A DNA stretch of 64,000 bases from the IMG/VR virus record IMGVR_UViG_3300032047_000006, positions 1-64,000 of that record. The stretch is one strand, 5' to 3'. This document shows, one piece after another, positions 1,919-41,823 of the stretch. The DNA comes from a virus. The notes under the pieces were generated by a model that was not told the origin of the DNA, made no database searches, and worked only from the letters and a program-made list of their open reading frames with translations. How positions within the stretch are numbered: position 1 is the stretch's first letter; each line of letters starts with the position of its first letter. A program made the position numbers and the translations under genes.

Positions 1919-3139
1919 ATGACTTTTGATTTAAACAAACATACTGCTCGACTCCTCAGAGATGAGCCGTTCTTCGCCGCTCTGTCCAGAAAGATAGACA
2001 AGCGAGCTTCCACTGCTATTCCTACAGCAGGCGTTAGAGTCAACCCTGACTCTGGCTATTTCGAGATGCTTTACAATCCAGAGTTCTTCGAAGGGTTAAC
2101 CGACTCTCACAAGCAAGGTGTTCTCATGCATGAGTTCTACCACCTTGTCTTTGAACATGTTACTGGGCGTTTGCCTGAAGGTGGCATGTCCATGATTTGG
2201 AACCAAGCTACTGACTTGGCTATCAACTCTCATTTGATGGGTAAACTTCCTAAGGGCGCTCTGATTCCTGGTGAAGGTTACTTCGAAGGCTTTCCTGTCG
2301 GCGCTACTGCTGATCAATACTTGGAGCTTTTAAAACAAAAAAAGCAAGAACAAGAAGAGAACGGCGAAGGTAAAGGTGGAGAAGGAGAGGGCGAAGGAGA
2401 AGAAGGTAACGGTTCAGGCTCTGGTTCCGGCTCTGGCAATGGACATTCTGATCCTGGTGCCTGGGATGATCACTCTGGTTGGGGCGAGACTGATAACACT
2501 ACTAATGAGATTGCTAAAGAACGTTTAAAAGAAGCTGTAAAGAAAGCAGCTGAAGAAGCTAGTAAAGGTTCTGGTTGGGGTTCAGTCTCTTCAAAGTGTC
2601 GACAAGACATCATTGATTCAGTAACTACTAAGGTTTGCTGGCGTAAAGTCTTGCGATACTTCATTAAGACGTCTCAGAAGGCGAACAAGCGCTCTACAAT
2701 CAAGCGAGTTAACAAACGTTACGCCTATATCCACCCAGGCAAGAAAGTCCAGCGACAAGCCAAGATTGCCATCGCAATTGATCAATCTGGTTCTGTCGAC
2801 AATACAATGCTTACAAAGTTCTTCTCTGAGTTGAACAACTTAGCAAAATTAGCAGAGTTCACAATCATTCCTTTCGATCACGAAGTTGATGAGAATAAAA
2901 TCTACGTCTGGAAGAAAGGTGAACGACGGAAAACAGAGCGTGTATTGACTGGCGGTACTTGCTTCGATGCTCCTACTGATTATGTTAATCGTCATAACTT
3001 TGACGGTGTCATTATCTTGACAGATATGTATGCTCCCAAGCCAAAGAACTGCAAGGCACAGCGAATGTGGATGACTGATGCATCCTGCGCTGCGCATCCT
3101 TATTTCACCACACGAGAACGTGTAATTGTTATCGATTAA
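1919..3139 (+). CDS. Metallopeptidase + VWA domain protein (DUF2201-like), MoxR partner
   Basis: HEFYH zincin motif, 'WNQATDLAINS', G/E/S-rich linker, MIDAS DQSGS..GGT..TD; ATG at 1919. Confidence 0.9.
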   Translation: MTFDLNKHTARLLRDEPFFAALSRKIDKRASTAIPTAGVRVNPDSGYFEMLYNPEFFEGLTDSHKQGVLMHEFYHLVFEHVTGRLPEGGMSMIWNQATDLAINSHLMGKLPKGALIPGEGYFEGFPVGATADQYLELLKQKKQEQEENGEGKGGEGEGEGEEGNGSGSGSGSGNGHSDPGAWDDHSGWGETDNTTNEIAKERLKEAVKKAAEEASKGSGWGSVSSKCRQDIIDSVTTKVCWRKVLRYFIKTSQKANKRSTIKRVNKRYAYIHPGKKVQRQAKIAIAIDQSGSVDNTMLTKFFSELNNLAKLAEFTIIPFDHEVDENKIYVWKKGERRKTERVLTGGTCFDAPTDYVNRHNFDGVIILTDMYAPKPKNCKAQRMWMTDASCAAHPYFTTRERVIVID

Positions 3140-3172
3140 TCCGAGAACAAAAGAAATAAAATAACTAATTAA

Positions 3173-3347
3173 TTGACTGAGAATATAAGGTGTGGTATAG
3201 CCATTGTCTCAGTCAGAGTAGGGTAAGCACTATATACTGGAATGACTTCAGCCGGATACAAGGCATGCACGATGAAGTAAACATAGTTAACCAATTGGGT
3301 TGTTGGTGTGAAGAAGGGAAGGCTTGGCTCAAGTACTTCCCTTTTTT
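3173..3347 (+). ncRNA. Candidate structured non-coding RNA (~175 nt)
   Basis: No ORF; late motif CTAATTA at 3165-3171; stems TGACTGAGA/TCTCAGTCA and ACTTCA/TGAAGT; ends in an intrinsic terminator. Confidence 0.5.
3314..3347 (+). terminator. Intrinsic terminator
   Basis: AAGGGAAG-GCTTG..CAAGT-A-CTTCCCTT followed by a T-tract. Confidence 0.75.
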
Positions 3348-3359
3348 ATTATAAAAGAC

Positions 3360-3389
3360 TTGACAATAGCTAATAAGGTATGGTATATA
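3360..3389 (+). promoter_or_regulatory. sigma70-type promoter
   Basis: TTGACA followed by extended -10 TGgTATATA. Confidence 0.5.
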
Positions 3390-3390
3390 T

Positions 3391-3545
3391 AGGGGTAGGT
3401 AGGGGAGCCCCCTCCCCCTCCGGGATCTAAGTCCCTAGGGGATCTACCCCCTCCCCAGGTGAAGCTAGGTACATTCACGATCACACGGCAAAATTTGGAG
3501 ACTTAGGGTATTCCCCCTAAAGACAAGCTTAAAATACCCCCGTAT
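3391..3545. repeat. G/C-run palindromic non-coding block
   Basis: GGGGTAG/CTACCCC, GGGATCTAAGTCCC, TTAGGG/CCCTAA and GTGAA/TTCAC inverted repeats; CCCCCTCCCC twice. Confidence 0.6.
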
Positions 3546-3601
3546 AAAAATTTGAGATTCTATTGGACTACTTAGAGTAGAACATAGGAGGGTATTGGAG
3601 G

Positions 3602-3946
3602 ATGGGTTCACCAGAAGAGGTTATAAAGGCAACAGAAGGGATTATATCGGGCTTGCTTGGGCACTATGGGTGGATGTTTATCGCAGCCTTCGCAATCCTC
3701 CTATTCAAGAACATTGTATCGAACGCACTTGATGGCATACTCTTTATGTTTGGGCACGACTTCGATGTGGATGACATCGTTTATATAGGGGGCACGAAGA
3801 AGGCGAGAATCATCCGCCAAACCCCCACCAAAACGGTATTCCACCTTATAGAGTCGGATAGAAAACTTATTGTGCCTAATGGGGCGCTTTACTCTCTAAG
3901 AATAGAAAAGGTTCTTCCTGGCTCTAAGGGCGGAAAAGAGATTTAG
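3602..3946 (+). CDS. Small membrane protein with MscS-like beta domain
   Basis: Hydrophobic helix then 'FDVDDIVYIG..ARII..TVF..LIVPN..L' pattern; RBS GGAGG; late motif at 3568. Confidence 0.6.
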   Translation: MGSPEEVIKATEGIISGLLGHYGWMFIAAFAILLFKNIVSNALDGILFMFGHDFDVDDIVYIGGTKKARIIRQTPTKTVFHLIESDRKLIVPNGALYSLRIEKVLPGSKGGKEI

Positions 3947-3949
3947 AAA

Positions 3950-3958
3950 CTACTTATA
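3950..3958 (+). promoter_or_regulatory. Putative late promoter (CTAHTTA)
   Basis: CTACTTATA upstream of 3995. Confidence 0.65.
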
Positions 3959-3994
3959 GAGGACTGGAAACGACAATTCACCTGGAGCACCATA

Positions 3995-4288
3995 ATGAAA
4001 ATCAAAAAAGAAGAATTATTAAAGATTATTAAAGAAGAAACCAAAAGGGTTTTGAGCGAAGGGCGCTATCATTTTGCGAACTCTTTCGGCGAACTTAACG
4101 TTTCGGAAGATCCAAGAGCGCAAGCATTTGAGCAGTGCATAAAGATTCTTAACGAATTAACCTACGACTCCCTAGAAGACGAGGTTGCTTCTATGGCTGA
4201 TGAAGCTGCTCGTGCGTTATGGAAAGCAGCAGAAGAATTAGATTATAAAAGAAATCAAGTTGGAAATCTTGAAGAAGGAGAAAAGTAA
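3995..4288 (+). CDS. Putative internal head protein
   Basis: N-terminal 'LLKIIKEETKRVLSE' helix; late motif at 3950. Confidence 0.7.
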   Translation: MKIKKEELLKIIKEETKRVLSEGRYHFANSFGELNVSEDPRAQAFEQCIKILNELTYDSLEDEVASMADEAARALWKAAEELDYKRNQVGNLEEGEK

Positions 4289-7623: not shown

Positions 7624-7836
7624 ACAGTAATTATCTCTCGCCGTTTAACGCTCTAAACGGCAGAAATTTTCTTTCGGAGTTCGTGGCAATGCCGACAAGC
7701 GTTAATTTTAAGTTAGGAGTTATTTCTCTATTCCTCGCCGTCGGACTCAAAATATATCACTCTAATCCCCACCTCTTTTAAAACCTTTACTTGTGCCGTT
7801 TCTTGTGCTATTATATCTTTTAGATCCTACTTATTA

Positions 7837-7968
7837 TTAAGGGTATGAGGAAACATAAATTACTTGGTTCAAAGTTGTCAACGAACCTTCGTCAAGAATA
7901 AGGAGTATTACTTCTAGGACACATTAAAGGACAACTAGCACGACGGAGCAAAAGAAGTCAGCCCTTAA
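7837..7968 (+). ncRNA. Candidate structured non-coding RNA (~130 nt)
   Basis: Starts right after late motif CTACTTA (7827); closing stem TTAAGGG/CCCTTAA with several internal hairpins; no ORF. Confidence 0.4.
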
Positions 7969-23374: not shown

Positions 23375-23419
23375 TGTAAGTAGCCAAGGGCGAATAAAAA
23401 GAGTTTAAGCCTATTTACC
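23375..23419. promoter_or_regulatory. Divergent pair of putative late promoters
   Basis: CTACTTACA on - strand (23383-23375) facing the protease; CTATTTACC on + strand (23411-23419) facing phoH. Confidence 0.65.
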
Positions 23420-39984: not shown

Positions 39985-41823
39985 ATGAGTAAAAAGAGAA
40001 CAGTATCTATTAAATATACGAGCAGAGAATTCGATACTATCAAGGCAGACTTGGTTGAATATATAAAAAGGTATTACCCAAATTCATATAAAGACTTTAA
40101 CGAAGCGTCTTTTGGCTCCTTGATGATTGATACTGTGTCTTATGTCGGAGATATTCTTTCGTTCTACATAGACTATCAAGCGAACGAAACCTACCTCAGT
40201 ACTGCTACAGAATTCGATAACCTCCTCAAGATAGGAAAACAGGCAGGATACAAATTTTCAGGAACACCGTCTTCCGTTGGACTTGCTTCTTTTTATGTAA
40301 TGGTTCCTGCGACAACATCAGGCATCGGTCCTGACACAAAATATATCCCTGTCTTAAAGAAAGGCGCATCAGTGTCGACTAAGTCTGGAAATTCGTTCAT
40401 ACTCAGTCACGATGTTCACTTTGGATCTAATAACAATGAAATTAGAGTTGCTAGAGTTGATCCAAATTCAGGTGATCCGACTTATTATGTAATAAAGGCG
40501 TTCGGAGAAGTTGTTTCAGGAGTTATAGATACTGAGTTTGTCACTGTAGGTTCATTCGAGAAGTTTAAAAAAGTAAGGTTGGAATCATTGGATATATCTG
40601 AGGTAATTTCTGTCAAAGACGCCGAGGGAAATGAATATTATGAAGTAGACTTCCTATCGCAAAATATTATATACAAGGGTGTTACAAACAGAAGCAAAAC
40701 TCTAGGAAATCAGTCACTTGATTATAATACAGGAGATCAGTCTTCAGAAATACTGAAGCCCGTAGTTGTTCCACGAAGATTTGTTACCGATCGCTCAAGA
40801 AGAAGGACTGAATTAACTTTTGGAGCGTCATCTGATTATATTATGCCAAACGATATGATATCAGAACCCCAGTCTACAGTTTTGGAAGTTCACGGAAGAA
40901 ATTATATACAAGACACCTCGTTTGATCCTACGAATTTGATAAAAAGTGATAAGTTTGGAATTAGTCCTTCTGATACCATACTTACGGTAGAGTACAGGAG
41001 AAACTCTGCACAAAATGTAAATTGCAGCACTAATCAGTTGACACAGACTGGAGACTATGAGATGGAATTTACAGATATTACGACACTCAACAGTGCTCAG
41101 ATGACATTTATATCTACATCTCTGGAAGTAGACAATGAAGAGCCTATCATTGGCGATGTGACAATCCCAAATTCTGAAGAACTACGCCACAGGATAATGG
41201 GAACATTTCCTACTCAAAACAGAGCGGTAACACAACAAGATTATGAATCTTTGATTTACCAAATGCCACCACGTTTCGGAGCAGTTAAGAGATGTCGAGT
41301 AATAAGAGACAATGATTCATTAAAGAGAAATATAAACATATATATGATTTCGGAAAACGCCTCAGGTACACTTACAGAAGCAAATTCTGTATTAAAAAGG
41401 AACGTAAGGACTTGGATCCAAAAGAATAAGATGATAAATGATACAGTCGATATTCTTAACGCAAAGGTGGTTAATTTAACTATCGATTTTGTTGCAGTCG
41501 CCTCAATCGAGTCCTCCAAGTATGATGTCCTCGCCGCCGCAAAAACAGCTTTAGCAAGAAGATTCACAAGGCATCCTGACATCGGCGAACCATTCTTCAT
41601 AACGGACGTTTATAAAGAATTGAGGAAAGTAGACGGCATTATTGATGTGTCGGACGTTAAGATAAATCAAAAAAATGGCATGACATCTGAAGGAAATTAT
41701 TCTACAATAAGATTTGACATTAATAGAGCAATGTCAGCCGACGGCAGATATATTGAACTGCCCAAGAATTTGATATACGAATTAAAATATCCAATTTTGG
41801 ATATTAATGGGGTGATAGTATAA
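39985..41823 (+). CDS. Baseplate wedge protein, T4 gp6/baseplate-J-like
   Basis: YTSREFDTIKADL..DFNEAS; NETYLSTA; TQNRAVTQQDYE. Confidence 0.9.
   Translation: MSKKRTVSIKYTSREFDTIKADLVEYIKRYYPNSYKDFNEASFGSLMIDTVSYVGDILSFYIDYQANETYLSTATEFDNLLKIGKQAGYKFSGTPSSVGLASFYVMVPATTSGIGPDTKYIPVLKKGASVSTKSGNSFILSHDVHFGSNNNEIRVARVDPNSGDPTYYVIKAFGEVVSGVIDTEFVTVGSFEKFKKVRLESLDISEVISVKDAEGNEYYEVDFLSQNIIYKGVTNRSKTLGNQSLDYNTGDQSSEILKPVVVPRRFVTDRSRRRTELTFGASSDYIMPNDMISEPQSTVLEVHGRNYIQDTSFDPTNLIKSDKFGISPSDTILTVEYRRNSAQNVNCSTNQLTQTGDYEMEFTDITTLNSAQMTFISTSLEVDNEEPIIGDVTIPNSEELRHRIMGTFPTQNRAVTQQDYESLIYQMPPRFGAVKRCRVIRDNDSLKRNINIYMISENASGTLTEANSVLKRNVRTWIQKNKMINDTVDILNAKVVNLTIDFVAVASIESSKYDVLAAAKTALARRFTRHPDIGEPFFITDVYKELRKVDGIIDVSDVKINQKNGMTSEGNYSTIRFDINRAMSADGRYIELPKNLIYELKYPILDINGVIV

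Follow-up and report, generated by a model that had tools for sequence, protein, structure and literature searches.

What lies in the 460-nt gap between a VWA-type gene and the gene that follows it in the genome of an uncultured marine phage? A first-pass annotation of the window, that is, the whole 64,000-nt stretch of DNA analyzed here, had placed in this gap a structured RNA candidate bounded by a promoter and a terminator. Here, we provide evidence that this element (3165-3347, plus strand), whose 183 bases would give an RNA of ~180 nt, is a real, conserved and structured RNA family outside Rfam. To our knowledge, very few phage regulatory RNAs are known apart from those of several model phages, and uncultured phages, which prevail in the ocean, have contributed hardly any.

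The locus and the boundaries of the element

The window belongs to a phage record of 81 kb, judged ~45% complete, that encodes PhoH, an exonuclease, glycosyltransferases, giant proteins of 2014 and 3842 residues and, at 39985-41823, a baseplate wedge protein of the T4 type. The VWA-type gene (1895/1919-3139; Pfam DUF2201_N and DUF2201; phrog_1314) is separated by the gap from the next gene (3602-3946), and the element lies inside this gap, 3' of the VWA-type gene. Stretches near-identical to positions 3000-3700 of the window are found in sequencing runs from 15 studies, and many contigs of the phage group have an end no more than a few kb from the locus, which may mark a physical genome end.

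The segment between the VWA stop codon and the element (3140-3164) carries a CCGAGRG box followed by an A-rich run, and a similar CCCGAGAGAAAG.. sequence is located upstream of the ATPase start (~660-690). In distant relatives, TTTTGCGGGAAG and an A-rich stretch lie directly 3' of the VWA stop, ahead of a small ORF, while in one subgroup the VWA stop codon is inside a perfect hairpin (UCGACUA-GAAA-UAGUCGA). The terminator of the ATPase gene (1793-1850) has a large loop; comparison of the equivalent place in 25 relatives found CUCUCAC-type and CUUUCC-type motifs in this loop in nearly all of the relatives shown. Ribosome-binding sites are of the AGGAAAG type at three early genes (76, 696 and 1919), and of the GGAG/GGAGG type at genes with an upstream CTAHTTA.

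The 5' boundary of the element is marked by CTAATTA at 3165-3171 on the plus strand, a copy of this promoter-like CTAHTTA motif that the first-pass annotation had called a late motif and that we read at the same position. C1, T2, A3, T6 and A7 of the motif are invariant (CTAnnTA) in all 32 copies of the element that we collected. In the window, CTAHTTA occurs 29 times on the plus strand and 9 times on the minus strand; about two thirds of the plus-strand occurrences sit in short gaps, 20-35 nt ahead of start codons, and the sole minus-strand gene has its motif on the minus strand (23377-23383), 38 nt before its start. This gene-oriented behavior fits that of a putative phage-specific promoter, and the motif may instead be an RNA-processing site. 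Pfam and PHROGs recognized no sigma factor or RNA polymerase matching the motif in the proteins tested. P1, the first helix of the element, begins to pair 3-6 nt downstream of the motif in all subgroups. Therefore, if the whole helix is part of the RNA, the 5' end must lie at or just after the motif.

At the other end, the plus-strand intrinsic terminator P4 (3314-3347) consists of an interrupted 13-bp stem followed by U6, and is the terminator reported previously. We place its stem at ~3314-3343 (GGGAAGG..CTTCCC) and T6 at 3342-3347. A simple terminator scan overlooked P4 on account of the interruption in the stem. The lower part of the stem, GGGAAGG/CUUCCC, hardly varies across copies, whereas two upper pairs covary, with UA replaced by CG in 16 copies and CG by UA in 11. 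The U-run is present in 32 of 32 copies, as T6 in 31 and as TATTTT in one.

The element is bounded on its 3' side by the next sigma70-type promoter, which lies outside the RNA on the plus strand (3360-3389: TTGACA, an 18-nt spacer and TATATA, with TG). Its TTGAC box follows the U-run by 12-14 nt in 24 copies and by 1-2 nt in 7, and none was found in one. The TTGACA promoter, a G/C-run block and a box like GTGCTAAGTACATTCACAACGG..AATTTTTCCAGATTT (together 3360-3560) are also present in many distant relatives that lack the RNA, indicating that this block is older and more widespread than the RNA itself.

The order of promoter, structured RNA, terminator and long same-strand gene block is the one expected of a cis-acting leader such as the lambda PR' 6S RNA, put RNA or a riboswitch, in which polymerase starting at the motif would either stop at the terminator or, after modification by the RNA or a P3-bound factor, continue into the downstream genes. 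A sigma70 promoter 1-14 nt after the U-run and a CTAHTTA for each downstream gene would nevertheless make read-through unneeded. Given that this strong promoter box lies just past the U-run in 31 of the 32 copies, that the downstream genes have their own CTAHTTA, that no conserved alternative pairing extends over the terminator and that no known aptamer in Rfam matches, we regard a cis-acting leader as quite improbable.

Distribution, fold and conservation of the RNA

A protein-anchored search identified 19 viral-contig loci with the VWA gene, of which only the closest, at 76% identity, has kept the element, and a third copy came from searching with the downstream gene. We used the 20-base core common to these first three copies, with its two variable positions left free, as a search pattern. 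Scanning metagenome contigs with this core yielded 41 loci, from which we left out five chance matches devoid of the flanking RNA features and one locus truncated by the contig end. Together with the window and the viral contigs, the remaining loci amount to 32 distinct copies of 149-187 nt, all of which start 23-50 nt 3' of the stop codon of a VWA/DUF2201 gene. A covariance model built from 12 copies recovers and aligns the full set of copies (E <= 1e-15) and detects one copy of the element per genome.

The same covariance model found no element in the 90-odd loci searched from more distant relatives, where VWA protein identity is 55-65% and, at most of the loci, small ORFs occupy the position of the element. 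Another candidate late-promoter RNA in the window (7827-7968) is unrelated, the model giving a single match in the window and in the whole record. A comparison of the region with 50,697 phage records for cultured relatives gave no blastn match, and a tblastn search with the VWA protein returned only distant matches in Bacillus jumbo phages and one match in an Erwinia phage. The RNA belongs to one clade of uncultured marine phages with a T4-type baseplate protein. Among relatives without the RNA, some (L003, L005 and L017) show, ~40-70 nt past the VWA stop codon, a brief non-coding segment in which a AYAGGAGAGAGTMACA box is conserved; this box recalls the GGAGAGAG box in the linker of the RNA.

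The minimum-energy fold of 3165-3352 has a free energy of -57 kcal/mol (z = -3.4) and contains the helices of P1, P2 and P4; none of 200 dinucleotide shuffles folds as well. Single-sequence folds agree on the succession of P1, a purine-rich linker, P2, a short linker, P3 and P4. We assessed covariation on a model-fitted alignment (A3), with alignments that were shuffled or slid by 1-3 columns as controls. Standard pairs form in 91.8% of the cells, compared with 74% after shuffling and 36-48% after sliding. Both sides have changed in 29 of the 43 pairs, compared with 22 in shuffled and 9-13 in slid alignments, and the covariation score is 0.457, compared with 0.167 and at most 0.068, respectively. 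Since A3 is fitted to the model, we also counted double-change pairs in a MAFFT alignment of 12 copies made without the model, and found 14, against 6.3 in shuffled and at most 6 in slid controls. Covarying homologs, whose absence would have spoken against the RNA as it was first described, therefore exist: across the 32 copies, 29 of the 43 pairs have changed in a compensatory way. Conservation of the primary sequence is uneven, with a mean pairwise identity among copies of 41% (minimum 20%) in the 5' part, 94% in the P3 box and 80% in the terminator. Collectively, we show that P1 and P2 are under selection for pairing and not for sequence, and that the P3 box, the GGAA of the linker and the lower terminator stem are under selection for sequence.

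P1 is a 5' hairpin on the plus strand (3174-3215) with a 24-nt loop in the minimum-energy fold, in which the 9-bp stem noted previously, TGACTGAGA (3174-3182) with TCTCAGTCA (3207-3215), pairs as described. A hairpin of ~6-14 bp occupies this position in nearly all copies, built from at least six unrelated stem sequences, and 10 of 11 P1 pairs show double changes. Within the window's own subgroup, L058 and L063 have 3-4 inner P1 pairs altered with pairing kept. The P1 loop of 16 copies contains CUCAC(A/G)CC, which is similar to the motifs in the ATPase terminator loop.

In the window, the P1 region also contains a sigma70-like promoter on the plus strand (3173-3201) that is lineage-specific and had escaped the first-pass annotation: a -35 box TTGACT at 3173-3178, a 17-nt spacer and an extended -10 box, TGgTATAGC, ending at 3201, so that the promoter spans the 5' arm and the loop of P1. 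The loop matches the core of the downstream promoter (3360-3389) at 15 of 16 bases, and the pattern TTGACW..TGGTATA has two matches in the window against 0.03 expected. It is thus conceivable that the window feature acts mainly at the DNA level, as a second sigma70 promoter copied from 3360, and that the 9-bp stem is incidental. The promoter boxes and their near-identity to the downstream core would be accounted for in this way. A plausible, usable -10 box is however present in only 2 of the 32 copies, the window and L060; L058 has CATACC and L063 has CATGCC in its place, and the other 28 copies are devoid of a P1-overlapping sigma70-like promoter. The stem, by contrast, is kept everywhere with unrelated sequences, and we consider a primarily DNA-level role very improbable.

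P2, the second domain (3245-3278, plus strand), is likewise part of the minimum-energy fold. As reported before, ACTTCA (3245-3250) pairs with TGAAGT (3273-3278) and encloses GCC (3251-3253) paired with GGC (3262-3264). In relatives, P2 is a stem in two parts, bulged on its 5' side (YWWAC) and with a small hairpin inside, and all 13 modelled pairs show double changes. For the window's own version of P2 the support comes only from position, since the stem in L060 is identical.

P1 and P2 are connected by the purine-rich linker (3216-3244, plus strand), which is unpaired in single-sequence folds and contains a GGAA (3239-3242) that is invariant or nearly so in alignment A1. In most relatives the linker reads GGAGAGAG..AAAGGAAGG and resembles a Shine-Dalgarno site; no start codon follows the AGGAAGG box in the copies checked. 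This single-stranded AAAGGAAGG/GGAGAGAG linker might be a bait, in which case the RNA would be a decoy for whatever binds the ribosome-binding leaders of early genes, with the 30S subunit, a translational repressor and the anti-RBS loop of the ATPase terminator as candidates. Such a role would agree with the resemblance of the linker box to the AGGAAAG sites of early genes and with the ~9 bp that it can form, when paired by hand, with the CUUUCC stretch in the loop of the ATPase terminator, a motif found there in most of the relatives shown. Nonetheless, the 5' part of the RNA is no closer to its own VWA leader than to shuffled or other leaders, GGA is not enriched, and the two linker boxes are in the wrong order to form one duplex with the loop. 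A decoy function therefore appears rather improbable.

The best-conserved part of the element was absent from the first-pass annotation. It is a 24-nt box (3286-3309, plus strand) containing the hairpin P3, ACCAG[UUGGGUUG]CUGGU, in which 3290-3295 pairs with 3302-3307 around the loop UGGGUU. The one variable pair of P3 is G-C in 28 copies; the remaining 4, which come from three P1/P2 subgroups, have A-U. No copy is half-changed, although the search pattern allowed it. Because 20 bases of the box served as the search pattern with which copies were collected, part of the near-invariance of P3 stems from the collection itself. Sequence 3' of P3 differs among copies. When 16 copies were folded together (alignment A4), RNAalifold preferred another fold of the box, in which GGUGU pairs with ACACC of the P1 loop and AGU-AACC pairs with GGUU-GCU. 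All 16 copies could form this alternative, which shows no covariation, and ACACC/GGUGU is missing in other subgroups, including that of the window. If it formed, the modelled alternative could possibly make the RNA a two-state switch.

The family matches nothing already described. An Rfam check of 2800-3900 of the window assigned no family, the matches at E <= 10 being at chance level and far below gathering scores; ten homologous loci (35 kb) had no match in Rfam 15 at E <= 1, and literature searches retrieved no description of the RNA. The earlier statement that the element resembles neither tRNA or tmRNA nor a CRISPR repeat is borne out: ARAGORN detected no tRNA or tmRNA gene in the whole 64-kb window, no Rfam CRISPR-DR model matched, and the P3 20-mer occurs only as single genomic copies. 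In one genome for each of 185,579 bacterial and archaeal species, the 20-mer was found as four single occurrences. Two of these are the hairpin alone and a third gives a weak, low-confidence alignment; one that we inspected lies in coding-looking DNA. None of these genomes contains a convincing full-length copy, and the covariance model recognizes at most the hairpin box. Four isolated single copies of the P3 core indicate that no host sRNA or CRISPR repeat has been copied.

We checked coding capacity explicitly because all three variable bases of the P3 box are third positions in one open frame, VNQLGCWC, which raises the question of whether the element encodes a small protein, for instance through the 54-codon frame at 3190-3354. 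There is, though, an in-frame stop directly before the P3 box in 10 copies and no start codon, the downstream peptides and C-termini are frameshifted among copies, and minus-strand frames are equally inconsistent, which makes a small protein extremely improbable. No ORF is conserved on either strand, in line with the absence of a meaningful ORF noted at the outset. With conserved boundaries, covariation, no conserved ORF and no known Rfam family, the original reading of an uncharacterized phage ncRNA stands.

Transcription and candidate functions

Since P1 and P2 are selected for shape, and P3, GGAA and the lower P4 stem for sequence, we read the element as a trans-acting RNA whose recognition surface is P3. 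Specifically, we propose, with a probability of about one half, that it is a separately transcribed, trans-acting phage RNA recognized through P3; its transcription, timing and function are those we infer from the sequence. The RNA would be transcribed alone from the CTAHTTA motif, starting at or just after it, and would end at the U-run. P3 would be the recognition element, through a kissing contact with a complementary RNA loop or through protein binding, with P1 and P2 serving as a scaffold and the terminator hairpin stabilizing the 3' end. In the window's lineage, the copied sigma70 promoter in P1 may additionally give an earlier form without the 5' arm.

We assessed expression from the assembled contigs of public runs. 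In one oligo-dT RNA library, a contig of 151 nt matches 3115-3265 exactly; its start lies 50 nt upstream of the motif, which suggests read-through from the VWA gene or DNA carry-over. No assembled contig of the RNA libraries covers 3266-3415. Separately, metatranscriptome contigs from two runs of one study (X19 and X20) cover 3601-3744 and 3858-4006, and they diverge from the window exactly upstream of 3601, indicating that those libraries contain a relative whose upstream region differs.

A sole RNA-library contig that runs unbroken through the VWA 3' end, the motif and P1 is what one would expect if the element were a structured 3' UTR of the ATPase-VWA operon, whose hairpins and terminator end and stabilize the mRNA and from which a small RNA would arise only by processing. 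The constant position of the element, 23-50 nt after the VWA stop, would fit as well, and 3'-UTR-derived sRNAs typically have conserved 3' parts and variable 5' parts. A 3' UTR nevertheless leaves unexplained the invariant CTAnnTA directly before P1 and the presence of the same motif, gene-oriented, before ~18 other genes. Moreover, a terminator alone needs neither three extra covarying helices nor a 24-nt sequence-conserved box, and sister clades have the same operon without the element. Overall, we regard the 3' UTR explanation as unlikely.

Regarding what a trans-acting RNA of this kind might recognize, the complement of the P3 loop, CAACCCAA, has four occurrences in 251 kb of DNA from related phages, where 3.8 are expected, and no plus-strand match in the phage's own 81-kb record. 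Likewise, 10-12-mer complementarity between any part of the RNA and phage-internal targets is at chance level. It is tempting to hypothesize, more tentatively, that the RNA is a host-takeover or anti-defence riboregulator of this abundant marine clade whose P3 binds a conserved host RNA or protein, or that it forms an RNP with the adjacent MoxR-ATPase/VWA pair, for which the Y RNAs with the VWA-containing Ro60 offer a model.

Three other candidates were not supported. For a CsrA sponge of the CsrB/RsmZ type, GGA occurs 3.56 times per RNA, compared with 3.53 in shuffles, and 1.7 of these are unpaired. For mimicry of the phage's own early (VWA) leader, the own-pair score is 13.6, compared with 12.5 +/- 2.1 for shuffled sequences and 13.4 for the leaders of other groups; the 5' part of the RNA resembles the early leader only in its purine-rich composition. 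For an RNA anti-CRISPR, that is, a solitary repeat mimic, no CRISPR-DR match was obtained in Rfam, and the P3 20-mer was found in bacterial and archaeal genomes only singly.

Whatever its function, the RNA comes in 32 distinct natural versions and has a well-supported fold, and its conserved P3 hairpin is sharply delimited and could serve as bait; the VWA protein encoded next to it has more than 5,000 relatives in public data. The RNA opens a concrete way to study how these phages regulate genes or manipulate their hosts, and could be submitted as a new RNA family.

Relationship to known small RNAs

The first-pass annotation had listed a packaging RNA among the possible identities of the element. 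Like the pRNA of phi29, it is a phage-encoded structured RNA of a size near ~170 nt that may lie near a genome end. A phi29-type packaging RNA is nonetheless unlikely: the two ends of the RNA do not pair with one another, the Rfam pRNA model has no match and the phage encodes a baseplate wedge protein. Where pRNA has its helix A, the 3' end here is a self-contained terminator hairpin, and the phage is not phi29-like. As for the loops of pRNA that are complementary between molecules, ACACC of the P1 loop is complementary to GGUGU just 3' of P3 in 16 copies, with no covariation, and the other subgroups, including that of the window, lack it.

The stable RNAs C and D of T4 (species 1 and 2) are encoded in the tRNA cluster and processed like tRNAs. 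Like the present element, they are small RNAs of a large tailed phage with no assigned function; in contrast, there are no tRNA genes in the 64 kb analyzed here. The lambda PR' 6S transcript and the put RNAs of HK022 are short, bounded by a promoter and a terminator, and located just ahead of later genes. Our element is similarly bounded by a motif and a terminator ahead of a gene block; in contrast to these RNAs, its downstream genes have their own promoters and its structure shows strong covariation.

In the antisense RNA pairs CopA/CopT, RNAI/RNAII and Sok/hok, hairpin loops with a YUNR U-turn recognize their targets. P3 is similarly a hairpin with a conserved loop sequence that begins with UUGG, which fits YUNR. 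Unlike in those pairs, neither 251 kb of DNA from related phages nor the phage's own record yielded a complementary loop.

Finally, ArcZ and 3'-UTR-derived sRNAs such as CpxQ combine a variable 5' part with an invariant 3' seed and a terminator. In contrast to these RNAs, the conserved segment here is a hairpin rather than a single strand, and no phage target was found. Simple seed-type sRNAs are usually devoid of helices held by covariation, whereas P1 and P2 covary. In other respects the element has the build of terminator-ended sRNAs, including a similar size, an own promoter or 3' UTR origin as far as the nucleotide sequence tells, a GC-rich terminator with U6, and a peak of conservation just before the terminator.
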